The notes under the pieces were generated by a model that saw nothing but the letters and a program-made list of their open reading frames with translations, did not search any database and had not been told where the DNA came from. A DNA stretch of 51,340 nucleotides. Source: Promethearchaeota archaeon. GTDB taxonomy: Archaea > Asgardarchaeota > Lokiarchaeia > Sigyniarchaeales > SOKP01. The stretch lies in NCBI GenBank assembly GCA_016840545.1, contig JAEOSD010000002.1, positions 1 through 51,340 of the forward strand, in the 5' to 3' direction. The position numbers and the translations under genes were made by a program. Of this stretch, positions 34,049-50,803 are shown piece after piece; the stretch's first letter is position 1, and each line of letters starts with the position of its first letter.

Positions 34049-36409
34049 CTAGATTGTAGCATGTTCTGTTCTTCTGATAATCTCATCTTGCAAATCTGCC
34101 CCTAAATTAATGAAATAATCACTATATCCTGCAACTCGTACGATTAAATCTCCATATTTTTCTGGATGTTTCTGTGCTGCACGTAAGGTATCTGCTGATA
34201 CAACATTAAATTGGATATGATGCCCATTCATTTCGAAATATGCTCTAATTAAGTGAGCTAATTGATTAATTCTATTCTGGTCAGAAAAGAAATGCGGACT
34301 ATATTTTTGGTTCAATAAAGATCCTCCTGTTCTTAAATGATCAATTTTACTAGCAGATTTAATTACTGCAGTTGGACCATTGGTGTCCATACCCTGAACT
34401 GGGGAAATACCCTCTGATAAAGGTGTATAAGCCCTACGACCATCTGGTGTGGCACCTGTCACTTGACCAAAATAAATATGAACCGTTGTAGGAAGAAGAT
34501 TGATACGATGCACTCCTCCTCTAGTATTAGGACGATTATTAATAGCATCATACACAATGTTAAAAACTTGAGTAGTTAATGAATCAGCATAATCATTATC
34601 ATTTCCATATTTAGGAGTTTTATAGATTAGCATCTGACGGATAAAGTCATATCCCTCAAAATTATTATCTAAGCTTTTTAGTAATTGTTCCATGGATATA
34701 TTTTTTGTATCAAATACATTATACTTAAAAGAAGCCAAACAATCCGTAATACTACCCATTCCTACAACTTGAATGTATGATGTGTTATATCTAGCTCCAC
34801 CATTATTGTAATCCTTCCCATTCTTAATGCAATCATCGATCAATATCGAGAGGAAAGGTGCCGGACTTTGTGCCCATATTCGTTCAATTATCTGATTTCC
34901 CTTAATCTTAATATCTACAAAATGCTTAATTTGTGCATTATAAGCTTTGAAGAGATCCTCAAAAGTTTCAAACGATATTGGATCACCGGTTTTCAATCCA
35001 ATCTGTTTCTTAGTTATCGGATCAAAACCATTATGAAGCGTTATTTCAAGTATTTTTACTAAGTTGAAATATCCTGTTAGAATGTATGCTTCTTTCCCAA
35101 AAGCACCAGATTCAACACAGCCACTTGCTCCACCATTTCGAGCATCTATCAGGGATTTACCCTGTTTAGTTAATTCTTGAATTATTGCATCTGCATTGAA
35201 AACTGAAGGCTGCCCAAAACCAGTTTTAATAATTTCAAGCGCTCTATTTAAAAATTCATCTGGAGTTTTATTAGTTATCTGAACATTACTACTTGGTTGA
35301 ACTATCCTCATTTCTTCAATTATATCTAAAAGTATATAAGACATTTCATTAACTCCATCAGAACCATCTTCCCTAAGACCACCGATGTTAATATTGCAAA
35401 AATCAGTATATGTATTGCTTTCTTCTGCTGTTACTCCAACTTTGGGTGGAGCAGGTTGATTATTGAATTTCACCCAAAAAGCTTGAAGTAATTCATAAAT
35501 ATCTTCCTTTGTCAATACACCATTAGCTACATCTTTTTTGTAGAACGGAAATAGGTGCTGATCCAAGCGTCCGGGATTGAAAGAATCCCACGTATTATAT
35601 TCTGTTATTACACCTAAATGAATAAACCAATAATGTTGGAGTGCCTCCCAAAATGTTCTTGGAGCATATGCTGGGACATAGGAACATATATCTGCTATCT
35701 TCTGTAACTCTTTTTTTCTAATTTCATTTGACTCAATTGTAGCCCGTCGTCTGGCTTCTTGCGCATGGCGTTGTGCAAAACTGATTATTGCATCCGCAGC
35801 GATATCCATTGCTTTTAGCTGCTCTCTTTTATTAAAAGCATCTGGATCATTGAAAAAATCTAATTTTTCTATATTATCTTTTATTTCTTGTTTAAAATCA
35901 ACAAATCCCTTTTTCCATATATTTTTTCCTCCAACTGTATGTCCTGGTGCTCTCTGTTCCATAAACTCCGTGAAAATGCCAGCTTCATAGGAATCAATCC
36001 ATGCATTATCAACTTGAGAGAAGATTTTATCACGAATAGATCTTCCTTTCCAAAAGGGAATGATTGTTTCTTCTGTTTTTTGCCTTGTATCTTCAGAAAC
36101 TTTGAATGAAATTTTATCTCGAGTATTTAGAATGTCTAAATCTTGTAAGCTATGACAACATACTTCTGGATAAGTAGGCGTTGCTTTTGGTTCTGGACCG
36201 CGTTCACCAACAATTAATTCACCCTCATTGATACAGATTTTTTTGTTTTCCATTAAATACTTGAATGCCATTGCTCTTGCAACTGGAGCTGAAAATTTAT
36301 GAGCTGCACCAGTTTTATAAAATTCGGTGATTAATAGAGCGCGTTCCAATGAAATAGAAGGGATTGTATTTCGGCTTTGAGCCCGTAATTTTTTAATTCG
36401 TTCATTCAT
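34049..36409 (-). CDS. glycyl radical enzyme, PFL2/dehydratase-lyase class (GCVE type)
   Basis: C-terminal glycyl-radical motif LIVRVAGYSDYF. Thiyl loop GGASGCVESG has a single Cys plus Glu, unlike the CC of true PFL. The 786-aa size is typical. Confidence 0.9.
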   Translation of the reverse strand: MNERIKKLRAQSRNTIPSISLERALLITEFYKTGAAHKFSAPVARAMAFKYLMENKKICINEGELIVGERGPEPKATPTYPEVCCHSLQDLDILNTRDKISFKVSEDTRQKTEETIIPFWKGRSIRDKIFSQVDNAWIDSYEAGIFTEFMEQRAPGHTVGGKNIWKKGFVDFKQEIKDNIEKLDFFNDPDAFNKREQLKAMDIAADAIISFAQRHAQEARRRATIESNEIRKKELQKIADICSYVPAYAPRTFWEALQHYWFIHLGVITEYNTWDSFNPGRLDQHLFPFYKKDVANGVLTKEDIYELLQAFWVKFNNQPAPPKVGVTAEESNTYTDFCNINIGGLREDGSDGVNEMSYILLDIIEEMRIVQPSSNVQITNKTPDEFLNRALEIIKTGFGQPSVFNADAIIQELTKQGKSLIDARNGGASGCVESGAFGKEAYILTGYFNLVKILEITLHNGFDPITKKQIGLKTGDPISFETFEDLFKAYNAQIKHFVDIKIKGNQIIERIWAQSPAPFLSILIDDCIKNGKDYNNGGARYNTSYIQVVGMGSITDCLASFKYNVFDTKNISMEQLLKSLDNNFEGYDFIRQMLIYKTPKYGNDNDYADSLTTQVFNIVYDAINNRPNTRGGVHRINLLPTTVHIYFGQVTGATPDGRRAYTPLSEGISPVQGMDTNGPTAVIKSASKIDHLRTGGSLLNQKYSPHFFSDQNRINQLAHLIRAYFEMNGHHIQFNVVSADTLRAAQKHPEKYGDLIVRVAGYSDYFINLGADLQDEIIRRTEHATI

Positions 36410-36906: not shown

Positions 36907-37896
36907 CTAGAAATCTATATCTTGTCCAATTCCTTTTTCTAGTGCTCTATCATACACGAGTTTTCCAACAGCCACATCTTGAGCACTGATTCCAACAGAT
37001 TTAAATACGGTAATTTCTGAATCTGAAGTTCTTCCCGGCTTTTTTCCTGTTATAATATCTCCTATTGAAATAATATCGTTTTCAGTTATAACTCCCTCAT
37101 TTATCGGAATTAAATAGTCTCCAGCTTCAGCTAAGCATGCCTCCTTTAATCCAGCAACTCGTAAAGAAGCTCGTTTAATTATTGCTGAATCTAATTCTCG
37201 AACACCTGGAGCGTGTGCACCTATAGAAGAGATATGTGTACCCTCAACCACCTTATCTCCTGAGAATAATGGTACTGTACTTGTAGTTGCAGCAACAATA
37301 ATATCAGTATTAGATAAAAGGCCATCACCCGAATTTGTAATCTCAACATTTATTCCTAATTCACTTTCAATTTCATTTTTAAATTCTTCAGCTGTTTCTT
37401 TTTTAAGATCAAATACTTTACATTTTTCTAATTTTTGATTTAATCCCCAATAAACTCCATGTACCTGTTTTCTTGCTTGTACTCCAGCACTATATATTCC
37501 TAATGTCGTACTATCCTTTCTTGCTAAATATTTGACTGAAACTCCGGTGGCAGCTCCCGTTCGTATGGCTGTAATAAGACTTCCATCCATAATACCTACA
37601 ATATCACCAGTATTTATATCTTGGATCATAACTTTTGCTAAAACTGTGGGCATATTATATTTCTCTGGATTTTGCTTGTAGACAGATACTATTTTAGTTG
37701 CTAGAGCACTCATTTCTCCTCCAATAATGCCTGGCATTATTAATGTTAACCCTGGAGCAGGATCTGTAATTGCAATTCGTTGAGGAACAATAGCATTCCC
37801 TAAGGTTAATTGTTTATAAGCTTCCTCAACATATTTCAATGCATCTTGCATGGTGAGTAAACTCGCAACATTTTCTTTTGTTAATATTCTTACCAT
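36907..37896 (-). CDS. ornithine cyclodeaminase/mu-crystallin family NAD(P)-dependent enzyme
   Basis: Family-typical length. Rossmann motif LGIYSAGVQARKQV, TSTVPLF, and GTHISSIGAHAPGVRELD. Confidence 0.85.
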   Translation of the reverse strand: MVRILTKENVASLLTMQDALKYVEEAYKQLTLGNAIVPQRIAITDPAPGLTLIMPGIIGGEMSALATKIVSVYKQNPEKYNMPTVLAKVMIQDINTGDIVGIMDGSLITAIRTGAATGVSVKYLARKDSTTLGIYSAGVQARKQVHGVYWGLNQKLEKCKVFDLKKETAEEFKNEIESELGINVEITNSGDGLLSNTDIIVAATTSTVPLFSGDKVVEGTHISSIGAHAPGVRELDSAIIKRASLRVAGLKEACLAEAGDYLIPINEGVITENDIISIGDIITGKKPGRTSDSEITVFKSVGISAQDVAVGKLVYDRALEKGIGQDIDF

Positions 37897-37994: not shown

Positions 37995-38252
37995 TTAAAA
38001 ATTTACAATTTTCCTATCCCTCTCCATATTATTCGAAAACCTCTTATTTATCCAAATTACATACTGAATTCTCGTTAGAAGTAAGAGGCCAGCAAGGAAT
38101 AATCCTATCCCAATAGCTAATAGAAATTGAAATTCTTTTTCCCCTATTAGCCTAAAAAGGATAAGCCAGATTATTAGTATTATTACTGCTATAAGTATAA
38201 TTAGAACTGAAATATTCCTGATTTTTCTATTTACTCTATCGAATTCTTCCAT
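37995..38252 (-). CDS. small 2-TM membrane protein
   Basis: 85 aa with two hydrophobic helices. Coding status uncertain. Confidence 0.4.
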   Translation of the reverse strand: MEEFDRVNRKIRNISVLIILIAVIILIIWLILFRLIGEKEFQFLLAIGIGLFLAGLLLLTRIQYVIWINKRFSNNMERDRKIVNF

Positions 38253-38386: not shown

Positions 38387-38806
38387 ATGAAAGATTTAAA
38401 GACCAGTCTACATCATGCTCATCTTTTTGCATCAAACGTGGATGAAAGTATACGTTTTTATGTTGAAATGTTTGGAGCAGAGATTCTTTTTGATTTAGAG
38501 ATGGCAGGAGCTCGAAATGTTATGATAACAATTGGAACGTCAAAACTTAATTTCTATGATCAGCCGCCAAAAGATACAGGAAGAGGAGCTATTCATCATT
38601 TAGGCATAGAAACTGATGACCTTGAAAGTCTTGTTGCGCATATGAAAAGTAAAGGATTTAAGTTTAGAAACCAAATTAAAAGTTTTGGACCATTGAAGTA
38701 TGTTATGATTGCAGGTCCAGATAATGTGCTTTTTGAGCTTTTTGAAGTTGTAAAAGAAAAAGTTACTCAGGAGCAATACAATTTAATCTCAACCTTAGTT
38801 ATCTAA
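38387..38806 (+). CDS. VOC (glyoxalase/bleomycin-resistance/dioxygenase) family protein
   Basis: LHHAHLFASNVDESIRFYVEMFGAEI and IHHLGIETDDLESLVAHMKSKGFKF. The ORF track starts at a TTG at 38339; the ATG at 38387 gives the family-typical length. Confidence 0.8.
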   Translation: MKDLKTSLHHAHLFASNVDESIRFYVEMFGAEILFDLEMAGARNVMITIGTSKLNFYDQPPKDTGRGAIHHLGIETDDLESLVAHMKSKGFKFRNQIKSFGPLKYVMIAGPDNVLFELFEVVKEKVTQEQYNLISTLVI

Positions 38807-38808
38807 AG
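38727..38808 (+). repeat. direct repeat copy 1 (3-prime end of the VOC gene), partner at 46761..46842
   Basis: 82 bp align with 46761..46842 without gaps and with about 8 mismatches, counted by eye. Confidence 0.8.
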
Positions 38809-38856
38809 GTTGTTAATCATTGAGCTACGAAAAATTATTAAATGTATAATTATCAA

Positions 38857-38979
38857 AAAAATAAAGTCTTAAAAAGATAAACATCCTATTTATCATTAAT
38901 CATTATACAACATTGTATATCGATCCTAAAAGAATTCCAAGATTTCAATCTTTTCTATACAAAAGCATGATTTGATAAA
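38857..38979 (+). promoter_or_regulatory. upstream region of TIR-receptor gene A, duplicated upstream of gene B
   Basis: About 120 bp are highly similar to 40973..41096. Both contain A/T-rich TATA-like tracts (TTTATC, TTATACAA) and two ATCCTA direct repeats about 36 nt apart. Confidence 0.4.
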
Positions 38980-40929
38980 ATGAAATCTAAAGTTAAAGCT
39001 AGGGATATAGAATTTAATTCAGTTTCATTTAATTTAAATAAAAATTTTACTTTAAAGAAATTTTCATTACTTTTTTTTATCTTAATATTATTTAACTTAA
39101 TTTTGATAACTAGTCTCAATCAGTTGTTATATAACAAATATATTGTATCTCAAGAGGTATCTATTATTAAAGTTTCAGATAATTATCTTTCAGAATCGAT
39201 TATTATTGACGATACTGGAGCAGGTAATTACACTTGGGATCAAGCAACAGCTCAAGAGTGGTGCTCTGGTTCTGGCACTTGGAATGATCCATATATTATT
39301 GAATTCTTAGAAATTGATGGTCAGAATTTTGCAGGCTGTTTAATAATCAGAAATTCTAGTGTGTTTTTCATTATAAGGGATAGTATTTTTTATAATTCTG
39401 GTGGAGGAGTTACTGATGCTGGGCTCAAATTAGAACATGTTTCAAATGCTACATTAATTAATATCGATTGCTCAAATAATAAAGGCTATGGGGTTTATTT
39501 GTATAATTGTAAGAACATAACCATATTAGAAAGTGATATGAGCCATAATAAGTTAGGGGGCATTTTTCTAAATTCGAGTAGTTTTAATTTAATTACAAAT
39601 AATACTGATACAATAAACTATAACTATTGGGGTATTTATCTCTTATCGAGTCATAATAACACCATCAGTGGAAACTTCATAGGATATAATCAAGTAGGTT
39701 TACTTCTTAAGCAATCTAACAATAATTCTATAATTGAAAATATCTTCATGGAAAATGATGAAGCTTATATTCTTGAAGAAGATAGTTCTGGAAATAAGTT
39801 CCGAAGAAATACAATAACACTGAAACCCAACTTATTATTTGTAATCATTATAATTATCGTTATTATAGCTGGTATATCTGCTGCAAGTATCCTAACTATC
39901 TGGAAGAGAGTAATTATTCCGAAAAAAAGAGGAGAAGTAAAAGTACATGGAAAAATAAAAATTAAAGTTGAAAAAAATCTTCATGATAAGTTATCCTTTA
40001 TTGACTACTTGATAAGGGAAAAAAGTGTAAAAGAAGCTCTCAATAATCTGGAAGAGATTAAGGATTTATGCAACATATATGGTTTATTTGAGATATTAAA
40101 TGAGTGTGATGAAAAAATTGCTCATTGTAATTATCTGTATTTAGAGATGATTAGCATAATTAAGAGAATTGTGATAAATTTAGCTACTAAATTTGCGAGA
40201 TTAGAAATAATCGATATTAGTGAAAAAACTGGAATAAATGATGAAGATTTCATTATTGAAGTTATAGAAGAAATGATTCAAAATAATGAGGTATATGCTG
40301 AATACTTTTCAAACTATAAAACTATTAATTTTGACCAACAATCAAATGTTGAACAGATTGAAAAGCTCATAAAAACTTATGGAGAATGGGAGAAGAAAAA
40401 CCTTGATCGGGATGATTCGGCCCTTTTAATAGAAGAGATTCTGCCTCGGGAATTAAGATCAAAACCTATAATTTCTAAGTCTAAACCTGATGAATTCAAA
40501 GAGCTTAATATCTTTTTAAGTTATTCCACTATAGATACAGATTATTTTCAAATATCAAGAGTTGCAAAGAGTCTAGAAGAATACCCAGAGATTAACAAAG
40601 TAAAGTATTGGGAGGCAGATAGTACACAAAATATTGTTGAGTATATGGATAAAATGCTTGAAAAATGCGATGTGTTTGTATTATTTTGTAGTGAAAACTC
40701 TATGAAATCAATTTCTGTAAAAGATGAGTGGCAAGCGGCATTCCAGAGAAGGAAAAAGGGATTGGTTTCAATTATTCCAGTTTATGAACAAACTAGACAC
40801 ATTCCCGTTATATTAGGTCACTTTTTAAAGGTTAAATATGATAAAACAGATTTTAATAGTTTTACCAGGGAACTATATCAAGAGATTATGCGCTCAAAAG
40901 GCAGGAGACTACCACAAATAATAGCCTAA
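38980..40929 (+). CDS. membrane receptor-like protein: signal anchor, extracellular parallel beta-helix (PbH1/NosD-like), TM helix, cytoplasmic helical/winged-helix module, C-terminal TIR-like domain
   Basis: TM1 is FSLLFFILILFNLILITSL. Beta-helix repeats include NNKGYGVYLYNCKNITILESDMSHNKLGGIFL and NNTISGNFIGYNQVGLLLKQSNNNSIIENIF. TM2 is LLFVIIIIIVIIAGISAASILTIW, followed by KRVIIPKKRGE. The C-terminus LNIFLSYSTIDTDYF ... CDVFVLFCSENSMKSISVKDEWQAAF ... IIPVYE matches the TIR_2 pattern. Confidence 0.75.
   Translation: MKSKVKARDIEFNSVSFNLNKNFTLKKFSLLFFILILFNLILITSLNQLLYNKYIVSQEVSIIKVSDNYLSESIIIDDTGAGNYTWDQATAQEWCSGSGTWNDPYIIEFLEIDGQNFAGCLIIRNSSVFFIIRDSIFYNSGGGVTDAGLKLEHVSNATLINIDCSNNKGYGVYLYNCKNITILESDMSHNKLGGIFLNSSSFNLITNNTDTINYNYWGIYLLSSHNNTISGNFIGYNQVGLLLKQSNNNSIIENIFMENDEAYILEEDSSGNKFRRNTITLKPNLLFVIIIIIVIIAGISAASILTIWKRVIIPKKRGEVKVHGKIKIKVEKNLHDKLSFIDYLIREKSVKEALNNLEEIKDLCNIYGLFEILNECDEKIAHCNYLYLEMISIIKRIVINLATKFARLEIIDISEKTGINDEDFIIEVIEEMIQNNEVYAEYFSNYKTINFDQQSNVEQIEKLIKTYGEWEKKNLDRDDSALLIEEILPRELRSKPIISKSKPDEFKELNIFLSYSTIDTDYFQISRVAKSLEEYPEINKVKYWEADSTQNIVEYMDKMLEKCDVFVLFCSENSMKSISVKDEWQAAFQRRKKGLVSIIPVYEQTRHIPVILGHFLKVKYDKTDFNSFTRELYQEIMRSKGRRLPQIIA
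39202..40929 (+). repeat. paralogous module shared with 45009..46730 (beta-helix, TM, cytoplasmic domain, TIR)
   Basis: The 5-prime part has stretches of more than 70 nt identical to gene B, for example AGCTCAAGAGTGGTGCTCTGGTTCTGGCACTTGGAATGATCCATATATTATTGAATTCTTAGAAATTGATGGTC. The cytoplasmic part is more diverged. Confidence 0.85.
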
Positions 40930-40972
40930 CAATAAAGTTTCTATTCTATTTTCTTAAGTTACTATATTTCAC

Positions 40973-41096
40973 AAAAATAAAGCCTTAAAAAGATAAAGAT
41001 CCTATTTATCATTAATCGTTATACAATATTGTAGGATCGATCCTAAAAGAATTCCAAAAGTTCAATTTTTTCTATACAAAAGCATAATTTGATAAA
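40973..41096 (+). promoter_or_regulatory. upstream region of TIR-receptor gene B (copy of 38857..38979) with a 12-bp perfect palindrome
   Basis: AGGATCGATCCT at 41033..41044 is a perfect palindrome; copy 1 keeps only ATCGAT. The rest is collinear with copy 1. Confidence 0.4.
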
Positions 41097-44000
41097 ATGA
41101 AATCCAAAGTTAATGCTCATCTATCTAGAAAGATAAAGTGTAATTCATTTTCAATGAATTTTAAAAAGAAAATAATGTTAAAACGAGTTTCAATATTATT
41201 TTTCATCTTAATATTTTTCTCCTCAATTTTCTTCTCAAATTTGAACACACGCATAAATGAACCCCATAAAAAGGATCCAATCTCTTATGATAAAGATCCT
41301 CAATTAAGCAACCAAGGAGATGATATATTCAAACTAGTCTTTGGTACTCCTTATGGTCCAAATGCTCTTGATCCTCAAAACGCTTGGGATCAAGATTCAT
41401 ATAATGTGATAAATCAAGTGTGTGAGGGTTTATTTTCACATAATTTATCTGATCCAAATTTATCAATTATACCTCGTCTTGCAACAGCAAAGGGTACTTG
41501 GATGATCAATTCCACAGATACATGGTATACTGTTTCCCTTAGACCTAATGTATTCTTCCATGATGGAACTAAATTTAATGCAAGTGCGGTAAAATTTACT
41601 TTTGATCGATTAAGTTATTTTATGAATGTTAGTGGTACTCTTCCTGGGGAAGTAGGTCTCTCTATAATTTCTGTAGTATATGAGTATTATGATTTCGATC
41701 TCGGAAAAAATTACCCTATTATTAATAATACTGTTATTATAGATGAATATACAATTAGGTTCGAGTTAAATAAACCTTATGGACCATTTGAAGCATTACT
41801 ATGCTTTACTGGCTCATACATTTTATCTCCTACATCTACACCTCAATATGATCGTATAAATACAACTGTAGGAGATTTGGTCGGTACAGGTCCATTTGTT
41901 TATGACCATTTTATACCTGGTGATGAAGTAAAATTTCACGCTTTTGAGAATTATTGGGCAGGCAAGGCAAATATTACTTTTCTTAAATTTTCCATAATCC
42001 CAAGTGCAATAGGTAGAAATAACGCACTGTTATCAGGAGAAGTTGACTTAATAATCGATCCACTCGCCTCAATGTATGATAATTTTGATGCTGACCCTGA
42101 TATTACGTTAAATGATGCTGGACAGACTACATTAGTTCGATATCTTGGTATGAATAATAAAAGGATCAATGTAACTTGGCGAAAGGCAATTTCGAATGCC
42201 ATCAACTACTCCTATATTATTAATGTATTACTTGAAGGAAATGCAATAAGATTAAAATCTCCTCTGCCGGAAAATATGATATTTGCTAACTGGTCGTTTA
42301 ATGTCGCATTATATAACGTCACAAAAGCTAGAGAAATCATGCAGAGTATGGGTTTTGGCGTTGGATTCACAACAGAAGCAGAATGGTCTACGGCAACATT
42401 TGCTACTTTTAACTATAGCTATAATATTGGTAATAGTTTCCGAGAAGATATCTTAACTTTATTACAAGTTAATCTTGATAAAATTGGAATTGAAGTAACA
42501 GATGCTGGTACGAGCTGGATGGAATATTTTTATAAAATTGTTGAAATCCCTCCCTACACAAGAGATATGTTGGAACTCTACTTCTTAAATTGGATACCTG
42601 ATTATTTTGACCCAAGTAATTATATTAATGATTTATTCACTAATAGATCTGTTGAAGTTAATGGTGTCCAATATAATGGTTATACAGAAGCAATTGCAGC
42701 AGGTAGAGATCCATTTGATCTTTGGGATAATGTACAACTTTTAATGGATGCCGCTTTATTCGAAACTGATCAAATAGCAAGAAAAGCAATGTACGATAGA
42801 ATCCAACAACTCTTAGTGGAGGAGGATATGCCATGGGCATTTTGTTGTCTTCCGGATAATTATGACGCCTATCAAAGCCACATTCTTGGGTTTCAATCGA
42901 ATTCTATGGGAATCTTAAGTTTTTACGGCGTTAAACAAAATAGTACCATAGCTCCGCAAATTATTTCTATAGATGGTATTCAAGAGTGGCAATATTTTAA
43001 AGATGCAGGAAAATGCACTGGACAGGGTACAAGTTCGGATCCTTATGTAATAGAAGATTTAGCAATTGACGGTCGAAACAAATCGGTTAGTTGTATTCAG
43101 GTAGAAAATTCTGATGTGTATTTTACAATTGAAAATTGCACATTATATAATTCAATAGGTGCAGGAATTAAACTTATAAATGCTAGTAATGGACAAATAA
43201 TTGGTAATAATTGTTCAAATAATACTTTTGGGATATATTTAGATAATATTAACAACACTAATAACTTTTCTGCCAATGTTATTAATAACAATCTTCAGTA
43301 TGGGGTTATTTTAAACAATGTTAATAACACTCGAATTTTTAATAATAATTTTACTATAAATAACGTTAATGCCTATGATAATGGAACTAATAATAATTGG
43401 GATAATGGAAGTATAGGGAATTATTGGGATGATTATGGCGGAGTGGATGCAAATGATGATGGAATAGGGGATACTCCGTATTTAATACCTGGTACCGCAG
43501 GAAGCCAAGATAATTTTCCAATATGGGATGATGGGATTGATATTATAGCTGCGAAGATCGATAATATATTCTTAAATGGTGTGAATAAAACAATTGATAA
43601 ATCAATTTCTCTTTATTTGAACGAACTACTGGAGATTATAATTACTTATAGGGAAAATTTAACTTCAAACTTCATTACCTCAGCGACCGTAAGTATAACA
43701 GGGCCGACGATTACAGCAAATTTCACTGAAAATATCATTGCAGAGCATTATATTTTCATTTTGAATACTTCGGATTTGATAATTGGAATTAATAATTTGG
43801 AAATTAAAGCCTATAAGGTTAATTATCAGCAAGTATCGACCAATATAACTGTGACAGTATCTGTACCAGTCAGTGACTTATCTATTAATATAGTTTCTCC
43901 ATCAGAAGGGCAACTGTTTGGTGCTACGGCTCCTTCATATAATGTTGAAATTTCTGGTACTAATTTAGATACGATGTGGTACACACTTGACGGAGGGTTC

Positions 44001-46730
44001 ACAAATATAACATTTATAGCTAATGGTACCATTGATCAGACTGAATGGAATACTCGAGCAAATGGAACTGTTATAATTGCTTTCTATGCAAATGATACCT
44101 TAGAGAATATGGTTTCTAGCTCTGTATTAGTTAGAAAAGATTCTATCGCGCCAAATATTACCATTATTTCTCCTTTATATAATGAGCTTTTTGGAGCCTT
44201 GGCGCCGACTTATACTGTGGAAATTACTGATAGCAACGGAATAGATACAATGTGGTATACACTTGATGGGGGGTTCACCAATATCACCTTTATAGCTAAT
44301 GGTTCCATAGACCAGATAGAATGGGTTGGTCAAGCAAATGGAACTGTTACAATTGCTTTCTATGCAAATGATACCTTAGGAAATCTAGCCTTTAATTCAA
44401 TTATAGTCAGGAAAGATATTTTATCAGGTCCAACCATTTTAATAAACTCACCAACTGAAAACAGTTTTTTTGGTTATAACTCTCCTAATTTTAATGTAGA
44501 AATAACTAATATTAATGGTATAGATACAATGTGGTATACGCTTGATGAGGGACTTACCAATATTACATTTATAGCTAACGGTACCATAGATCAGACTGAA
44601 TGGGATGCTCAGGGAAACGGAACAATCACAATTAGATTTTACTCAAATAATACTTTAGGAATTTTGAGCTTTATGGATATAACGGTTGGGAAAGATACCG
44701 AAATACCAGTGATAACAATTCATCACCCAATAGCAAACACAACATTTCTACTAAGTAGCCCTGAATTCAATCTTTCTATTACTGAAGGAAATTTGGATTT
44801 CACATGCTATTCCCTATCTAACGATACATATGTAACAGGCAATTTTACATTTTCCGGTTTAACAGGAAAAATAGATCAAGAGCTCTGGGATAGTTTTATT
44901 AGTGGTCCGGTAGAAGTAATTTTTTATGCTATTGACAAAGCAGGAAATATTGGCTTTCAAAATGTGTCTATTATAAAACAATCAGAATATTACATTTTAG
45001 AAACTATAATTATTGACGATACTGGAGCAGGTAATTACACTTGGGATCAAGCAAAAGCTCAAGAGTGGTGCTCTGGTTCTGGCACTTGGAATGATCCATA
45101 TATTATTGAATTCTTAGAAATTGATGGTCTAAATAATGGAAGTAATTTAATAATTAGAAATTCTAATGCGTATTTCATTATTAGGGATAGTAGTTTTTAT
45201 AATTCTGGTGGAGGAGTTACTGATGCTGGGCTCAAATTAGAACATGTTTCAAATGCTACATTAATTAATCTTGATTGCTCGAATAATAATGGGCATGGAA
45301 TTTATTTATACAATTGTTATAATATCACCATATTAGAAAGCAATATGAATCATAATAAGTTAGCGGGTATTTTTCTAAATGCGAGTAGTTACATTTTCAT
45401 TTTAAACAACACAGAAACAATAAGTTATAATTATTGGGGTATTTATCTCTTTTCGAGTCATAATAACACCATCAGTGGAAACTTCATAGGATATAATCAA
45501 GTAGGATTAGTTCTTAAGCAATCTAACAATAATTCTATAATTGAAAATATCTTCATGGAAAATGATGAAGCTTATGTTGAAGAAGATAGTTATGGAAATA
45601 CATTTCAAGGAAATACGGTAGTACAGAAACCTGATAATCTATTTGTAATTATTATAATTGTTATCAGTTTAGTTAGTATTTCTGGTTTTAGTTTTATAGT
45701 TGTTCGGAAGAGAATAATTATTCCAAAAAAAGGGAGAAAAATAAAAGTATATGACAAAAAGAAAATTAAAGTCGAAGAAAAAATTCATAATAGGTTGTTA
45801 GCTGTTGATCGTTTGATAGAGTTAAAAAATGTAAAAGAAGCACTTAAGGATCTTGAAGAAATTAAAGATTTATGCAAAGTATATGGTCTATTTGAAAAAT
45901 CAAATGAATGTGATGAAAAAATTAATCAATGTAATAGTGAATATCTAGAAATGATTAATATAGTCAAAAGAGTTGTTTTAAATTTAGCTACAAAATTTGC
46001 GAGATTAGAAATAATCGATATTAGTGAAAAAATTGGAATAAGTGATATAAATTTCATTATTGAAGTCTTGCAAGAAATGTTTCGGAATAATGAGATTAAG
46101 GGTGAATATTTTTCAAAATCGAAAACAATTGCTTTTGACAGACAATCAAATATCGAACAACTCGAGCAGTTCATAAAAATCTATAGAGAATGGGAGATGT
46201 TAAATCTTGACAGGGATGATTCGGAGCTGCTATTAGAAGAAATTCGCTCAGAGGAAATAAAACCGAAAGCTATAGTTTCTAAATTATTGCCTGAGAAATT
46301 CAAAGAACTTAATGTTTTCTTAAGTTATTTTACTCTGGATGCTGATCACTTCCAAATATTAAGAGTTGCAAAGAGTTTAGAAGAATACCCAGAGATTGAT
46401 AAAGTAATGTATTGGGAATCGGATAGATCAAAAGAAATTGCAGATTATGCAGAATTTATGGATGAAACACTTAAAAAATATGACGTGTTTGTGTTATTTT
46501 GTAGTACAAATTCTATGAAATCTGCTTCTGTAAAAGATGAGTGGCAAGCAGCATTTGAGAAAAGGAAAAAGGGTTTAATTAAAATTATTCCTGTTTATGA
46601 AAAACTGGATGACATTCCAGTTATATTAGGACACTTTTTGAATGTTAAATATGATCAAAAACAATTTGAAAATTTTATCAAGAATCTTTATCAAGAGATC
46701 ATGCGCTCAAAAGGTAGCAGAATTTCTTAG
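41097..46730 (+). CDS. giant membrane receptor-like protein: signal anchor, family-5 solute-binding domain, beta-helix 1, Ig-like repeats, beta-helix 2, TM helix, cytoplasmic helical/winged-helix module, TIR-like domain
   Basis: The SBP_bac_5-like region includes ALDPQNAWDQDSYNVINQVCEGLF...IPRLA...WYTVSLRPNVFFHDGTKFNASAVKFTFDRL. The NosD-like beta-helix includes GNYWDDYGGVDANDDGIGDTPYLIP. There are four repeats of about 95 aa (MWYTLDGGFTNITFIANGTIDQ). Beta-helix 2 is nearly identical to that of gene A. The TM helix is LFVIIIIVISLVSISGFSFIVV, followed by RKRIIIPKKGRK. The TIR-like C-terminus is LNVFLSYFTLDADHF...VFVLFCSTNSMKSASVKDEWQAAF...IIPVYE. Confidence 0.75.
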   Translation: MKSKVNAHLSRKIKCNSFSMNFKKKIMLKRVSILFFILIFFSSIFFSNLNTRINEPHKKDPISYDKDPQLSNQGDDIFKLVFGTPYGPNALDPQNAWDQDSYNVINQVCEGLFSHNLSDPNLSIIPRLATAKGTWMINSTDTWYTVSLRPNVFFHDGTKFNASAVKFTFDRLSYFMNVSGTLPGEVGLSIISVVYEYYDFDLGKNYPIINNTVIIDEYTIRFELNKPYGPFEALLCFTGSYILSPTSTPQYDRINTTVGDLVGTGPFVYDHFIPGDEVKFHAFENYWAGKANITFLKFSIIPSAIGRNNALLSGEVDLIIDPLASMYDNFDADPDITLNDAGQTTLVRYLGMNNKRINVTWRKAISNAINYSYIINVLLEGNAIRLKSPLPENMIFANWSFNVALYNVTKAREIMQSMGFGVGFTTEAEWSTATFATFNYSYNIGNSFREDILTLLQVNLDKIGIEVTDAGTSWMEYFYKIVEIPPYTRDMLELYFLNWIPDYFDPSNYINDLFTNRSVEVNGVQYNGYTEAIAAGRDPFDLWDNVQLLMDAALFETDQIARKAMYDRIQQLLVEEDMPWAFCCLPDNYDAYQSHILGFQSNSMGILSFYGVKQNSTIAPQIISIDGIQEWQYFKDAGKCTGQGTSSDPYVIEDLAIDGRNKSVSCIQVENSDVYFTIENCTLYNSIGAGIKLINASNGQIIGNNCSNNTFGIYLDNINNTNNFSANVINNNLQYGVILNNVNNTRIFNNNFTINNVNAYDNGTNNNWDNGSIGNYWDDYGGVDANDDGIGDTPYLIPGTAGSQDNFPIWDDGIDIIAAKIDNIFLNGVNKTIDKSISLYLNELLEIIITYRENLTSNFITSATVSITGPTITANFTENIIAEHYIFILNTSDLIIGINNLEIKAYKVNYQQVSTNITVTVSVPVSDLSINIVSPSEGQLFGATAPSYNVEISGTNLDTMWYTLDGGFTNITFIANGTIDQTEWNTRANGTVIIAFYANDTLENMVSSSVLVRKDSIAPNITIISPLYNELFGALAPTYTVEITDSNGIDTMWYTLDGGFTNITFIANGSIDQIEWVGQANGTVTIAFYANDTLGNLAFNSIIVRKDILSGPTILINSPTENSFFGYNSPNFNVEITNINGIDTMWYTLDEGLTNITFIANGTIDQTEWDAQGNGTITIRFYSNNTLGILSFMDITVGKDTEIPVITIHHPIANTTFLLSSPEFNLSITEGNLDFTCYSLSNDTYVTGNFTFSGLTGKIDQELWDSFISGPVEVIFYAIDKAGNIGFQNVSIIKQSEYYILETIIIDDTGAGNYTWDQAKAQEWCSGSGTWNDPYIIEFLEIDGLNNGSNLIIRNSNAYFIIRDSSFYNSGGGVTDAGLKLEHVSNATLINLDCSNNNGHGIYLYNCYNITILESNMNHNKLAGIFLNASSYIFILNNTETISYNYWGIYLFSSHNNTISGNFIGYNQVGLVLKQSNNNSIIENIFMENDEAYVEEDSYGNTFQGNTVVQKPDNLFVIIIIVISLVSISGFSFIVVRKRIIIPKKGRKIKVYDKKKIKVEEKIHNRLLAVDRLIELKNVKEALKDLEEIKDLCKVYGLFEKSNECDEKINQCNSEYLEMINIVKRVVLNLATKFARLEIIDISEKIGISDINFIIEVLQEMFRNNEIKGEYFSKSKTIAFDRQSNIEQLEQFIKIYREWEMLNLDRDDSELLLEEIRSEEIKPKAIVSKLLPEKFKELNVFLSYFTLDADHFQILRVAKSLEEYPEIDKVMYWESDRSKEIADYAEFMDETLKKYDVFVLFCSTNSMKSASVKDEWQAAFEKRKKGLIKIIPVYEKLDDIPVILGHFLNVKYDQKQFENFIKNLYQEIMRSKGSRIS
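43864..44980 (+). repeat. four tandem in-frame repeats of about 280 bp encoding Ig-like (chitobiase C-terminal-like) domains inside gene B
   Basis: Units start near 43864, 44148, 44427 and 44703. Units 1-3 share GATAC(G/A)ATGTGGTA(C/T)AC.CTTGA.G..GG..T.AC.AATAT.AC.TTTATAGCTAA(T/C)GGT. Unit 4 is diverged. Confidence 0.85.
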
Positions 46731-46760: not shown

Positions 46761-46842
46761 TGCTTTTTGAGCTTTTTGAAGTTATAAAAGAAAAAGTTAC
46801 TCAAGGGTAATATAATTTAATCTCATCTTTAGTCATCTAAAG
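46761..46842 (+). pseudogene. relic copy of the 3-prime end of the VOC gene (direct repeat copy 2)
   Basis: It translates as LLFELFEVIKEKVTQG-stop, versus VLFELFEVVKEKVTQEQYNLISTLVI-stop in the intact gene. There is no upstream coding continuation. Confidence 0.7.
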
Positions 46843-46896
46843 AATTTTAGGTATAAATTAAAAAAAAAAGGGATTTCTTAAATATAGGTTGTTATT

Positions 46897-47958
46897 CTAT
46901 ACAGAAAATCTTTGGTTAATATTTGTCTGAAATTGAATATGAGGTCTTCGATGAGCCTGAGCTTGGTATCCGCCTCTTTTTGAGACTAAATAAAATTGTG
47001 CCATTGTACTATTATGTACAAGAGTTATACCGCGCCATTTTTTATCATTCGAGTTAAACTCAACTACATTTCCAAGTCCTATTCCTTCTCGAGTAGAGAA
47101 GTTAAAGGTTAACTTCCGTAAAATGCTAATAATTTCATCATGATATTCTTTTGAATTTTCCTTAATTGGTTTATCAATAATAATTGGTTTATCTTTAAAT
47201 CTTAATGCTTCAATTGCAAAAGCTTTAAAGATATCATTACTCATATAGTTCCATGCATAAGAATTAGCATAAAATTCAATTCCAATAAACTCTCCATTTA
47301 TAAATACCGCTATTCCGCATTGGTTCTCGACATTCTTAAAGTTTTTAATGATTTTTTCAGTTTGTTTTTCGGATACCTTTGTCATTTCAAGATAACTTTG
47401 AGTTGGCGCAACGTTCATGGCATATTTCATTTCGGCTCTATGAGATTGGATTTCCTCCCAAACTGCTGATTGACCACTTGCTGAAATTGCCTCATACGCA
47501 ACATTTGGGTGTATTCTCATTTTTGATGATTTAAAGCCTCGTCCTTTATTATAAGTCCACCGTGATTGTTCTACGCATTTTGCAGGTATAGTGTATTTTT
47601 GTTTGCCTTTTCCGGGGTTTTCACTAAATACACTTTTCTTTCCTCCAACTGGGAGTAAAATTGGTTCCCAAATTGTACGGTCCTGCTTTCCACCATGAAC
47701 AGTCATTCCAAATGGAATTAATATTTGTTTATCGCTTTTATTTATAACCTCTAATTGACTAACAGCTTCAGTTTCAATTATTTCTATTAATCCGGATTCT
47801 TCTGCTTCTTTAATACTAATAAAATCTATAAATTTATCATCTTGAATAATAATGGGTATAACGGTCATATTTTCATAAGCTTGAGGTGTACCTAATTTAA
47901 GAAAACTTAATGGATTTTTAAAAATAGACTCAACAATTTCAATACTTTCACTTTTCAA
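46897..47958 (-). CDS. conserved hypothetical protein, tentatively ARPP-1/DUF6569-like
   Basis: YENMTVIPI near the N-terminus, HGGKQDRTI and IPAKCVEQSRWTY resemble, from memory, the PL..., GxxQNR and CVExGRW motifs of DUF6569/ARPP-1. Not verified. Confidence 0.35.
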   Translation of the reverse strand: MKSESIEIVESIFKNPLSFLKLGTPQAYENMTVIPIIIQDDKFIDFISIKEAEESGLIEIIETEAVSQLEVINKSDKQILIPFGMTVHGGKQDRTIWEPILLPVGGKKSVFSENPGKGKQKYTIPAKCVEQSRWTYNKGRGFKSSKMRIHPNVAYEAISASGQSAVWEEIQSHRAEMKYAMNVAPTQSYLEMTKVSEKQTEKIIKNFKNVENQCGIAVFINGEFIGIEFYANSYAWNYMSNDIFKAFAIEALRFKDKPIIIDKPIKENSKEYHDEIISILRKLTFNFSTREGIGLGNVVEFNSNDKKWRGITLVHNSTMAQFYLVSKRGGYQAQAHRRPHIQFQTNINQRFSV

Positions 47959-47960
47959 AT

Positions 47961-48380
47961 CTATTCATCCTCCAATTTATTATTTTTAATATTTTTCTTT
48001 TCTCCTTGGTTAGGCATTTCCTCCTCATAGAGAGGATCAACAAATTGATTAACAATCTTTTTCCCGTTTTTTGTAAGTTCAACCCCATAAGAGACTTTAA
48101 GCTTTCCTTTTTTGCTCAAACCATTGATTCTTGTACCCCTTTCCACTTGGAATTTAGTTTCTGATAGTTCCTCCTTATGCGTTTTAACCAAACCTCCTTT
48201 TTTAAGGGCATTCAGATGGTAATTTAGGTTTTGCTTTTCTATTCCTATATTGTCCGCAATATCTATTGGTCTTTGAGTTTTTTCAGAAAGCTCTTTCATG
48301 ATATCAACTCTTACAGGGCTCCGAAATACAAGCCCAACCTTATCGAAAATAGGTTTTTTCTTTTCTTTTTTTTTAGCCAT
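47961..48380 (-). CDS. winged helix-turn-helix (ArsR-like) transcriptional regulator
   Basis: VRVDIMKELSEKTQRPIDIADNIGIEKQNLNYHLNALKKGGLVK. It ends 2 nt before the downstream 353-aa gene starts, so the two are probably co-transcribed. Confidence 0.7.
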   Translation of the reverse strand: MAKKKEKKKPIFDKVGLVFRSPVRVDIMKELSEKTQRPIDIADNIGIEKQNLNYHLNALKKGGLVKTHKEELSETKFQVERGTRINGLSKKGKLKVSYGVELTKNGKKIVNQFVDPLYEEEMPNQGEKKNIKNNKLEDE

Positions 48381-48701: not shown

Positions 48702-49547
48702 TTAACCTGTTGGAGAGAACACACCTGCAAAAACAAGCCACGCTAGGAATGTTTTTGAAACTAGACTTAATAGCTGATATACTCTTTCGCCATATAAATA
48801 GTCTTTCCATTTACCGACTCCTTTATATTGAAGAATCATGTTAATTGCGAACGTATTAAAGAAGAACAATTCAATTCCATAAATCATATAAACAAACCAA
48901 GGAATTCCGGGTCCAACAGAAACATCGGTATTAATAAAGTATGCGGTGATTACGATCCATGGTACTGCTCCAGCAATTACACCCAAATAGTAGGGTGTCC
49001 AATTAATCTTCTCTTTTAATTTCCTTGTGTATACGTTATAATTCTCCATAACTAATCCGAACATATTCATTAGAAAATTAGAAACAAATATCATAAAAAG
49101 AGACCAAAAATCAAGGACACCGAAAAACAATGCAATCAAAAAAATCATAACAGAGCTAGAAAAAGCATATTCAAACCAACGTATTTTATTAACCCCTCTT
49201 TTCAGATCTCTCACATACTTTTTGTTTAGCGGGTAAGCGATCAAGAAATGTGCTAACGCAGATAATAATAGAAAGGTTCCAACAAGCGCACCTAACGCAG
49301 TGAAGGTGAAAAATACTTCTATAACTGGCCCAAAAGTAGGTGGAGGTCCAGGATCAAAATTTTGATAAAAGGTATAGATATCTGCCGAAAAGCCTAATTG
49401 GGGTAAGAATCCGAATATTACCATCAGTAATCCCTGAATTAAATGCAAAAAAAACATATTCCGATTGAATTTCCTTAGATAATCGAAAGAAATATCAGAT
49501 TTTGGGATTAACCACTCATCTTTTAAATCATTATCAGTAGAGTTCAT
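48702..49547 (-). CDS. heliorhodopsin
   Basis: 7-TM protein collinear with my recollection of heliorhodopsin 48C12: FNRNMFFLHLIQ, RWFEYAFSSSVMI (counterion Glu126), AGAVPWI, and LQYKGVGKWKDYLYGERVYQLLSLVSKTFLAW (Schiff-base Lys265, codon 48755..48753). Confidence 0.85.
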   Translation of the reverse strand: MNSTDNDLKDEWLIPKSDISFDYLRKFNRNMFFLHLIQGLLMVIFGFLPQLGFSADIYTFYQNFDPGPPPTFGPVIEVFFTFTALGALVGTFLLLSALAHFLIAYPLNKKYVRDLKRGVNKIRWFEYAFSSSVMIFLIALFFGVLDFWSLFMIFVSNFLMNMFGLVMENYNVYTRKLKEKINWTPYYLGVIAGAVPWIVITAYFINTDVSVGPGIPWFVYMIYGIELFFFNTFAINMILQYKGVGKWKDYLYGERVYQLLSLVSKTFLAWLVFAGVFSPTG

Positions 49548-50341: not shown

Positions 50342-50803
50342 ATCTCAGAATTAAACGAAGATAAACTAAATATAATATGTAAGGATTCATTAATACCGGG
50401 AAAGGCATTTATTCCTCGTAAATATACTTTAACTCATTCTGATTCAACAGGAGATTTATTTCTAACGATCGATTGTGAATATGATGATGAACAGATATCT
50501 GGTTTATATACTCGTTTTATGAGAGATGAGGTCTTAGCGGAGTGGATTGAGAATGAAGGACGATATGAACTCCATATTTACGTTCATGTTAGTGGAGGGT
50601 TTGTTTTTGGATGGGCAAAATTAAGATACAAGATTTTCAAACATCATATGCCTTTAGTTCTAAAAGCAATAAGGAAAGGAGATAGAGAATTATTTGAGTT
50701 ATTTCCAAGTTTAGATCAATCTCAAATCTATATTCATTTCTTATCAAACAGAAATAAATATAATAAAATAGAAGAATTTGGAATTTTAAAAGATTATAAA
50801 TAA
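50342..50803 (+). CDS. Staygreen (SGR, Mg-dechelatase family) homologue; 5-prime end unresolved
   Basis: PRKYTLTHSDSTGDLFLTI, RDEVLAEW, LHIYVHVSGG, LRYKIFKHHMPLVLKAIRKGDRELF, and YIHFLSNRNKYNKIEEFG follow the SGR consensus. The frame is open from 50342, but the first in-frame ATG is at 50519. Confidence 0.8.
   Translation: MSELNEDKLNIICKDSLIPGKAFIPRKYTLTHSDSTGDLFLTIDCEYDDEQISGLYTRFMRDEVLAEWIENEGRYELHIYVHVSGGFVFGWAKLRYKIFKHHMPLVLKAIRKGDRELFELFPSLDQSQIYIHFLSNRNKYNKIEEFGILKDYK

Follow-up and report, generated by a model that had tools for sequence, protein, structure and literature searches.

The analysed window is a stretch of 51,340 nucleotides from an Asgard archaeal genome (Promethearchaeota archaeon; GenBank assembly GCA_016840545.1, contig JAEOSD010000002.1, positions 1 to 51,340 of the forward strand). 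Two open reading frames (ORFs), hereafter A and B, lie head to tail within it and encode predicted membrane proteins that combine a large ectodomain, a transmembrane (TM) helix and a C-terminal TIR domain, and that may act as outside-in receptors. The ORF list placed both genes exactly where an initial annotation, made from the letters alone, had put them (Table 1), and the motif positions given there were also exact (FLSY at A512 and B1741, VKDEW with E583 and E1815, and IIPVY at A598 and B1830).

The ratio of nonsynonymous to synonymous substitution rates (dN/dS) between each gene and its orthologue was 0.14–0.42, which indicates purifying selection on both and hence that A and B are genuine genes rather than fortuitous reading frames. 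The two are tandem paralogues: residues 58–644 of A resemble residues 1288–1876 of B with 71% amino-acid and 81% nucleotide identity, and the ~130 nt 5' of the A start resemble those 5' of the B start with about 80–90% identity.

Table 1. Coordinates of A, B, their parts and associated features. Positions refer to the window unless preceded by the handle of a related locus (L).
Feature	Position	Strand	Evidence or remarks
ORF A	38980..40929	+	649 aa: signal/anchor helix, beta-helix ectodomain, TM helix, PCI-like module, TIR
A upstream promoter-proximal region	38853..38979	+	copy upstream of B at 40969-41096 (blastn, alignment)
A N-terminal hydrophobic helix, residues ~28-47	39061..39120	+	Kyte-Doolittle; signal peptide or signal anchor after Lys-rich stretch
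A ectodomain, residues 58-285	39151..39834	+	NosD/PbH1 parallel beta-helix, 8 N-x-S/T sequons
A TM helix, residues 285-308	39832..39903	+	maximum Kyte-Doolittle value 3.10; 5 K+R in following 15 residues
A helical + winged-helix module, residues ~324-493	39949..40458	+	AlphaFold pLDDT mostly >90; PCI-like
A TIR domain, residues ~509-640	40504..40899	+	Pfam TIR_2 56.7 bits; Foldseek matches 4w8g, 7uxu, 8oz6, 7anw, 1o77
E583 codon, predicted catalytic Glu of A	40726..40728	+	position; conservation; alignment to the Glu of AT1G72930 and Cat1
ORF B	41097..46730	+	1877 aa: signal/anchor helix, SBP_bac_5, beta-helix 1, three ~92-aa repeats, beta-helix 2, TM helix, PCI-like module, TIR
B SBP_bac_5 solute-binding domain, residues 126-517	41472..42647	+	Pfam E=4.8e-65, 220.5 bits; gathering score 32.4
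B distal NosD-type beta-helix, residues ~685-795	43149..43481	+	NCBIfam NosD_copper_fam 685-795; Pfam NosD/Beta_helix, several stretches
B tandem ~92-aa repeats, residues 919-1200	43851..44696	+	three clear copies (repeat alignment); possibly Ig-like
B membrane-proximal beta-helix, residues 1347-1512	45135..45632	+	Pfam; 81% identical to A ectodomain
B TM helix, residues 1515-1536	45639..45704	+	followed by RKRIIIPKKGRK; 6 K+R in following 15 residues
B PCI-like helical + winged-helix module, residues ~1555-1724	45759..46268	+	homology to A; Pfam PCI 12.8 bits
B TIR domain, residues ~1740-1872	46314..46712	+	Pfam TIR_2 44.3 bits; E1815 codon 46539-46541
Direct repeat, left copy, ~85 nt	38727..38810	+	3' end of glyoxalase gene
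Direct repeat, right copy, ~85 nt	46761..46845	+	immediately after B stop codon
RelA/SpoT-TPR-SLOG protein	L005 3106-5673		also L006, L007, L008, L009, L011, L015, L019, L039, L047, L064, L082, L083, L084
526-aa protein	L008 4544-6121; L047 10770-12347; L084 9695-11275		and others

TIR domain, ectodomain and juxtamembrane module of A and B

Pfam TIR_2 (PF13676; gathering score 28) matched A at residues 511–623 and B at residues 1740–1854. Both proteins also showed weak similarity to the Pfam ThsB_TIR model, and neither matched PF01582; among 41 long relatives, TIR_2 matched all and PF01582 matched 10, with a best E value of 2.8e-6. An AlphaFold model of A 310–649 was built from an alignment of 44 cytoplasmic cassettes, the cassette being the ~340 residues that follow the TM helix. 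The model had a mean predicted local distance difference test score (pLDDT) of 86 and comprised long helices, a winged helix, a disordered linker and a five-stranded alpha/beta domain, the TIR part having a pLDDT of about 76–96. Foldseek searches against the PDB with this model gave matches at a probability of 1.00 to 4w8g (TMt 0.74), 7uxu (0.76), 5uzb (0.71), 8yym (0.70) and 1o77 (0.61). The proteins matched were Hydra TRR-2 (4w8g, the best match), the SPARTA TIR-APAZ protein, MyD88, SARM1, RPS4, AbTir (TMt 0.76) and TLR2, with RUN1, Cat1, EcThsB, MAL and TLR10 as further TIR matches. The first 30 of the top 50 matches were all TIR domains, and the remainder were TIR domains or PCI subunits of the COP9 signalosome. 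By profile and by fold, the C-terminal domain is therefore a genuine TIR domain, as had been proposed, and not a member of a non-TIR flavodoxin-like family. A nucleoside deoxyribosyltransferase-like identity was considered and rejected, being absent from the top 50 PDB matches and appearing in a viral structure library only at weaker scores than TIR proteins. A single-sequence phmmer search of the PDB with the cytoplasmic part gave no match even at E ≤ 10, whereas the profile searches did match.

The column of E583 was Glu in all 44 aligned cassettes, and in a hidden Markov model alignment of 174 representative proteins it was Glu in 179 of 183 TIR domains. Other invariant residues in the pocket region of the family TIR domain were S10, D15, C66 and S73. 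A TIR-only profile aligned the Glu of VKDEWQ with that of SSWCLDELV in the plant TIR protein AT1G72930 and with that of CWDEL in Cat1, so that the residue picked in the initial annotation (E583 and E1815) corresponds to the catalytic Glu of AT1G72930 and of the CRISPR-associated NADase Cat1. This Glu is essential for NAD+ cleavage by TIR domains (PMC7075850; bioRxiv 10.64898/2026.04.20.719644). A and B thus resemble the enzymatic TIR proteins, including SARM1, the plant TIR and TIR–nucleotide-binding–leucine-rich-repeat proteins (RUN1, RPS4, AT1G72930), AbTir, SPARTA and Cat1, in the TIR fold and in the Glu that follows strand beta-C in an S..x..(D)E motif. They differ in that those proteins are soluble and respond to intracellular cues, whereas A and B are membrane-anchored, have large ectodomains and have an activity that is predicted. 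In the signalling mechanism set out below, the TIR domains of A and B would be catalytically competent.

The TM helices were called from Kyte–Doolittle hydropathy, the positive-inside rule and the asymmetry of N-x-S/T sequons, and not with DeepTMHMM or SignalP. Hydropathy placed the N-terminal hydrophobic helix of B at about residues 31–49, after a Lys-rich N-terminus as in A. Between this helix and the second one, A has 8 sequons (5.1 expected from composition) and B has 57 (24.7 expected), and neither protein has any in its ~340 C-terminal residues. The stretch KRVIIPKKRGE follows directly on the TM helix of A, and a comparable cluster follows that of B (Table 1). Across the family, sequon density fell from 34.0 per 1000 aa on the N-terminal side of the TM helix to 2.4 on its C-terminal side, and the mean number of K+R residues was 6.5 after the helix versus 1.2 before it. 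The topology first proposed, with the beta-helix and solute-binding region outside the cell and the TIR domain inside, was borne out by hydropathy, positive-inside charge and sequon asymmetry alike, in the window and in the family, and these indicators put the beta-helix outside and not in the cytoplasm. A and B are accordingly predicted from sequence to be type-I (or hairpin-anchored) cell-surface proteins in which a single TM helix links the ectodomain to the cytoplasmic cassette.

The beta-helix of A was matched at residues 130–280 by Pfam Beta_helix (E = 3.6e-22) and NosD (E = 3e-17), and also by TIGR03804 repeats. The larger ectodomain of B begins with a solute-binding domain that NikA, DppA and Opp-type models matched in part, under every NCBIfam equivalog cutoff, so that none of them assigns it a ligand. 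Of the Ig-like repeats that had been described in B, the repeats themselves were recovered as three units of ~92 aa, and their Ig identity was downgraded to possible, its one match (Big_7, E = 0.006) lying below threshold.

Between the membrane and the TIR domain lies a module of ~190 aa, which the AlphaFold model resolved as helical with a winged helix, in agreement with the first description. Pfam PCI scored 12.4 bits for A and, as for B, stayed under the cutoff of 22. The family profile matched the PCI domain of COP9 signalosome subunit 3 (CSN3) in the PDB at E = 0.005. Foldseek matched CSN subunit chains over the N-terminal half of the cassette at a probability of 0.98–0.99 but with a TM-score of about 0.15, and one relative (P0016) has a precomputed PF01399 match. 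Profile and model together point to a PCI-like module and not to a proven PCI domain. PCI domains are assembly modules of the proteasome lid, the COP9 signalosome and eIF3.

Relatives in Asgard archaea and their recurrent neighbours

A word-indexed search with the cytoplasmic cassette retrieved 42 proteins, and all those with a named source came from metagenome-assembled genomes (MAGs) of Asgard archaea, namely Hodarchaeota (90% identity), Lokiarchaeota, Thorarchaeota and Promethearchaeota. An exhaustive profile search of 1.84 billion representatives gave 667 clusters when E ≤ 1e-10 was required and 305 under the stricter E ≤ 1e-30; the clusters are defined at 50% identity, and 305 is a lower bound for the family. 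Scanning a single genome for each prokaryotic species gave 73 loci. Seventy-two were from records titled as Asgard or as "uncultured archaeon" and spanned about 34 MAGs, including Odin-, Hermod-, Hod- and Thorarchaeota and Promethearchaeum sp., and the remaining locus was a weak bacterial match. Up to six loci occurred per genome, and a single 20-kb region (L008 1-20056) held four to five family genes, in which TIR-family genes alternate with TIR-less surface proteins and a RelA/SpoT-TPR-SLOG gene stands at the end.

Among 174 representative proteins, 63 had an ectodomain of ≥150 aa, a TM helix and a C-terminal TIR domain, 10 were multi-pass membrane proteins, 9 were long soluble proteins and 92 were short or fragmentary; the TIR domain was C-terminal in 165. 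NosD or Beta_helix domains were present in 35 of the 41 long members, and the distal modules of these members varied, comprising SBP_bac_5 (four), Peripla_BP_6 (three), PKD, fn3, TSP3, Ig_3, ANF_receptor and beta-propellers. The two proteins had at first been seen as an odd pair; they are in fact members of a large family, found almost only in Asgard genomes, that has a conserved PCI-like and TIR cytoplasmic cassette and contains multi-pass and soluble proteins beside the single-pass ones.

The accompanying statement that prokaryotic TIR proteins are nearly always soluble was overstated, since defence inventories include a bacterial "2TM 1TM TIR" system and the present family itself has multi-pass members besides soluble ones. 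That system is reportedly a candidate of Rousset et al., and, as far as its name goes, it shares with A and B a prokaryotic TIR protein with one TM helix. Unlike it, A and B have large ectodomains and a PCI-like module, and they had no match among the PADLOC models, which presumably include this system. No conserved 2TM partner was found near the pair: an 85-aa ORF with two TM helices at 37995-38252 lies on the opposite strand and shows no conservation at related loci.

Members of the family are annotated at NCBI generically as "TIR domain-containing protein". A full-text literature search found no description of the family, in a corpus that covers subscription journals poorly, so that this absence is not proof. 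The family is also unmentioned in a survey of Asgard defence, a prokaryote-wide defence census, the 2020 TIR survey with its 118 archaeal TIR proteins, and two recent preprints of the Sorek laboratory. The component domains and, from animals, the receptor plan are already known; what seems not to have been described is their combination, the PCI-like module and the expansion across Asgard archaea.

Some members depart from the receptor layout. Four complete proteins with a Met start and no TM helix (P0004, P0007, P0009, P0034) are soluble, as are proteins of about 480 aa with leucine-rich repeats (LRR) and a TIR domain, represented by P0030 (L024 8948-10396) and also found in L033, L034 and L052. 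The latter consist of N-terminal leucine-rich repeats, a winged-helix-like segment and the family TIR domain, without a TM helix, and are the only members in which LRR were seen. Two to four tandem TIR domains occur in P0077, P0053, P0062, P0067 and P0151. These proteins, with LRR-TIR members in at least four genomes, would suit a purely scaffolding role, in which receptor TIR domains recruit soluble PCI-TIR or LRR-TIR adaptors without catalysis, as in TLR–MyD88 signalling; the TIR domains of MyD88, MAL and Toll-like receptors (TLRs) among the top structural matches and the general use of PCI domains as assembly modules also fit such a role. Conservation of the Glu in 179 of 183 domains, together with the invariant S10, D15, C66 and S73, is hard to explain without catalysis, and Pfam assigned TIR_2, with ThsB_TIR more weakly, and not the metazoan-type PF01582. 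We consider a scaffold without catalysis quite unlikely.

Surface proteins that lack a TIR domain but share these ectodomains, and that have a short Lys-rich tail, were often encoded beside family genes. They resemble A and B in ectodomain families, in sequon richness and in a TM helix followed by a Lys/Arg cluster, but they end a few residues after that helix, whereas in A and B another ~340 aa follow, which contain the PCI-like module and the TIR domain. These sequence comparisons give the family the appearance of common archaeal surface proteins to which a PCI-like and TIR cassette has been added. A and B might then be no receptors at all but envelope proteins (adhesins, S-layer-associated, polysaccharide-binding or solute-capturing proteins) whose PCI-TIR tail serves for anchoring, organisation or local NAD housekeeping. 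Such a function would agree with the shared ectodomain types and C-terminal TM anchor of the neighbours, with the normal association of SBP_bac_5 proteins with transport, and with the housekeeping genomic context of the genes in the window and in the closest related locus (L001). It would leave unexplained why the cassette of ~340 aa is conserved (dN/dS about 0.15) across hundreds of proteins with differing ectodomains. There are no ABC transporter genes beside B, and neither anchoring nor housekeeping is a known function of TIR domains. We regard an envelope function of this kind as very unlikely.

All ORFs within 6 kb of family genes were clustered in a survey of neighbours. The top recurrent non-family neighbour was a protein of ~856 aa that occurred at 11 loci from different MAGs of one Lokiarchaeial clade, usually 250–600 nt downstream of a family TIR gene and on the same strand. 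It contains RelA_SpoT, TPR and LSDAT_prok (SLOG) domains. A model of its C-terminal half (pLDDT 87) resembled TRPM channels in their MHR1/2 SLOG region, the best-scoring structures being those of TRPM2 solved with ADP-ribose (E = 8e-6). In a search from the side of the SLOG protein, a TIR-family gene lay directly upstream in all three members at 63–71% identity, with TIR proteins of differing architectures. In Thoeris, a TIR product is sensed by a SLOG domain (bioRxiv 10.64898/2025.12.03.692087). The RelA/SpoT-TPR-SLOG protein is therefore a candidate reader or effector of a TIR-made nucleotide, and its position is suggestive of a pathway from TIR to SLOG to RelA/SpoT that would be restricted to this one clade.

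Two further genes were seen around the SLOG proteins. A 526-aa protein, in which Pfam recognised no domain with confidence and gave weak DUF4407 and coiled-coil matches, lies beside TIR-family and SLOG genes in about 10 loci (Table 1). Divergent SLOG homologues that lack a TIR neighbour have a conserved gene of the metallo-beta-lactamase fold upstream (L074 6284-6946; L076 6108-6770), and its weak similarity to the anti-Pycsar protein Apyc1 hints at turnover of a nucleotide signal.

Genomic surroundings and history of the gene pair

A direct repeat of ~85 nt (90% identity between copies) brackets A and B (Table 1); it had two matches in the window, with none expected. No integrase lies between the two copies. 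The repeat could be what remains of a different duplication unit, or an att-like scar left when an 8-kb unit was inserted through recombination. The closest relative, L001, contains an orthologue of A with 89% identity followed by a larger B-like gene, and it is flanked by housekeeping genes that include none of the genes flanking the pair in the window, which means that either the pair has moved or its surroundings have been rearranged. Between orthologues, the ectodomain (dN/dS 0.42) evolves faster than the two modules of the cytoplasmic cassette, PCI-like and TIR (0.14–0.16). In the comparison of A with B, the beta-helix was 81% identical in amino acids with a dS of 0.30, and the cytoplasmic PCI-like and TIR parts were 64–72% identical with a dS of 0.55–0.62; the lower dS of the beta-helix suggests gene conversion or a mosaic origin.

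The neighbours of the pair in the window encode a glyoxalase, an ornithine cyclodeaminase, a glycyl-radical enzyme, an ARPP-1 protein with an ArsR-type regulator, a heliorhodopsin and a Staygreen-like protein. A PADLOC search across the window gave generic matches only, and the window is not a defence island. The matches considered and set aside as known defence systems were a radical SAM protein (pVip models, about 15 kb from A), a NYN protein and Csa3-like helix-turn-helix (HTH) proteins, all of them generic. Among viral contigs, two weak loci were found, with 25% identity over the TIR region, and no family members.

These surroundings bear on the possibility that A and B form an abortive-infection or suicide module. 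On activation by virion attachment or envelope damage, the TIR domain would deplete NAD+ and growth stop or death would follow, without any messenger. The conserved catalytic Glu is compatible with such an outcome, as are the lack of a conserved partner gene near A, B or most family members and the presence of the NAD+-depleting TIR proteins SARM1, SPARTA and Cat1 among the closest structural matches. The bracketing repeats and the different context in the closest relative also suggest the mobility that is typical of defence genes. The absence of a PADLOC match, of a defence island and of family members on viral contigs speaks against it; four to six or more paralogues per genome, each able to kill, would be costly; and the link to the SLOG protein in one clade points to signalling. 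On this evidence we judge a suicide function to be unlikely.

The ArsR-type HTH gene (47961-48380) is followed by the ARPP-1 gene (46897-47958), both on the minus strand and convergent to B. ARPP-1 is named, in the Pfam description, for its association with genes for ADP-ribosylglycohydrolase (ARG) and rhodanese-phosphatase, and a connection with NAD/ADP-ribose systems made it an attractive candidate. As a possible partner of the pair this unit (46897-48380) was rejected as coincidental, being convergent, outside the direct repeats and missing from all 73 related loci, L001 included.

Other genes of the window were recorded for their own interest. The heliorhodopsin gene is at 48702-49547 on the minus strand (Pfam E = 3.5e-85), and a short protein at 50519-50803 on the plus strand matches the C-terminal part of the Staygreen family (E = 1.6e-32), which is best known from plant chlorophyll breakdown and is unusual in an archaeon. 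Upstream of the pair, the glycyl-radical enzyme is of the pyruvate formate-lyase type (34049-36409, minus strand; PFL-like E = 3e-221, plus Gly_radical) and adjoins the ornithine cyclodeaminase/mu-crystallin gene at 36907-37896. Two Ras-family small GTPases on the plus strand, at 6723-7247 and 30310-30825 (Pfam Ras E = 6e-44 and 3e-48), are typical eukaryote-like proteins of Asgard archaea and fit an Asgard source for the window. The radical SAM protein at 22569-23621 (minus strand) is very probably the one matched by the PADLOC pVip models (E = 5e-22); its Pfam match is to the generic Radical_SAM family, and it is probably not a viperin. The neighbouring ORFs at 19815-20582 and 23663-24625 have the look of family-2 glycosyltransferases in their N-terminal sequences. 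A NYN-domain (LabA-like) nuclease (806-1303) and a ribbon-helix-helix protein (1973-2452), both on the plus strand close to the left end of the window, are generic PADLOC and Pfam matches at a large distance from A and B.

Proposed signalling function and its meaning

We propose that the proteins with an ectodomain, a TM helix and a TIR domain are outside-in receptors with an NAD+-cleaving TIR output, a reading to which we assign a probability of about 0.5. A ligand or surface event would engage the ectodomains and cluster the receptors. Self-association of the PCI-like modules beside the membrane and of the TIR domains would then complete the active site around E583 or E1815; enzymatic TIR proteins are activated through self-association. 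The assembled TIR domains would cleave NAD+ to yield an ADP-ribose-derived product, probably a second messenger for a dedicated sensor, for which the adjacent RelA/SpoT-TPR-SLOG protein is the candidate in one Lokiarchaeial clade. The occurrence of one conserved cassette on widely differing ectodomains fits a common output module, and the number of paralogues and the faster evolution of the ectodomain between orthologues also count in favour of a receptor family. Gene structure, domain identities, fold, topology indicators, Glu conservation, the size and spread of the family and the SLOG linkage in one clade are results of the analysis. We infer ligand binding, clustering, NADase activity and the nature of the product, as well as the biological role, which may be antiviral, in the recognition of partners or kin, or in nutrient sensing; the sensing and the immune or abortive-infection roles suggested in the initial annotation are likewise putative.

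The closest parallel in layout is with the TLRs, interleukin-1 receptors (IL-1Rs) and Hydra Toll-related receptors. In these proteins, as in A and B, an extracellular binding domain is followed by one TM helix and a C-terminal cytoplasmic TIR domain. TLR-type receptors likewise form families of paralogues with variable ectodomains and a constant TIR domain, and the TIR domain of Hydra TRR-2 was the best structural match of the cassette. Some TLR TIR domains have been reported to make cyclic ADP-ribose in a manner dependent on the same Glu (2026 preprint, bioRxiv 10.64898/2026.04.20.719644). Unlike TLRs and IL-1Rs, A and B have ectodomains of NosD-type beta-helices, solute-binding and other prokaryotic modules and no LRR or canonical Ig domains, they have a ~190-aa PCI-like module between the membrane and the TIR domain, and their TIR domain matches TIR_2 and not PF01582. 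We know of no death-domain adaptors for proteins of this type. As to whether the similarity reflects common ancestry with TLRs, convergence is fully possible.

Thoeris, in which the TIR protein ThsB works with ThsA (SLOG-SIR2) or other effectors, offers a second parallel. In one Lokiarchaeial clade TIR-family genes lie directly upstream of the SLOG protein, and the TIR domains have their weak Pfam similarity to ThsB_TIR. The differences are that A and B had no match to the PADLOC Thoeris (ThsB) models, that the window contains no effector gene, that the candidate effector carries RelA/SpoT and TPR domains and not SIR2, that the TIR protein is a membrane receptor and not a small cytoplasmic sensor, and that the linkage of TIR to SLOG is limited to the one clade.

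Several observations weigh against a signalling receptor. The catalytic Glu is retained in TLR2 and IL-1R9/10 without NADase activity (PMC7075850; bioRxiv 10.64898/2026.04.20.719644). Beta-helix and solute-binding ectodomains also occur in the TIR-less surface proteins encoded next door, so that the ectodomain may not be a dedicated sensor. None of the neighbours of A and B recurs near relatives in the 73 related loci, PADLOC gave no defence family for either protein, and neither a SLOG, Macro or other evident reader domain nor a homologue of the RelA/SpoT-TPR-SLOG protein is present in the window. The adjacency to that protein lies within a syntenic block and could reflect inherited gene order instead of function. 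Moreover, a TIR neighbour was present in none of five divergent homologues of the SLOG protein (30–57% identity); a general linkage of RelA/SpoT-TPR-SLOG proteins to TIR genes was therefore rejected, and the association is kept as a clade-specific lead. None of the points that separate receptor signalling from a suicide module, a scaffold or an envelope function is decisive; between signalling and suicide, the paralogue count and the link to the SLOG protein speak for the former.

TIR is the best-documented immune module common to bacteria, plants and animals, and, to our knowledge, the combination of an ectodomain, a TM helix and a TIR domain in the cytoplasm has so far been treated as an animal invention. 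Asgard archaea are the closest prokaryotic relatives of eukaryotes, and a family of this kind among them bears on the origin of the receptor-type TIR domain. More speculatively, the proteins might constitute an Asgard transmembrane TIR network like the innate-immune receptors of eukaryotes. Interchangeable ectodomains would feed a shared PCI-like and TIR output, clustering would generate an ADP-ribose messenger, and this would act on shared readers such as the RelA/SpoT-TPR-SLOG protein, with the soluble PCI-TIR and LRR-TIR proteins as adaptors or intracellular sensors. We regard a network of this extent as tentative and, as a whole, improbable; if true, the receptor plan of ectodomain, TM helix and TIR domain, and possibly the eukaryotic receptor-type TIR lineage too, would predate eukaryotes.

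The family provides a system in which it can be tested whether prokaryotes use TIR domains for outside-in signalling, which cues they sense (viruses, syntrophic partners or peptides), and whether the receptor plan arose before eukaryotes or by convergence. A new wiring, in which NAD+-derived signals would be passed to alarmone-type effectors, is suggested by the PCI-like module next to the membrane and by the connection with a SLOG-RelA/SpoT protein in the one clade.

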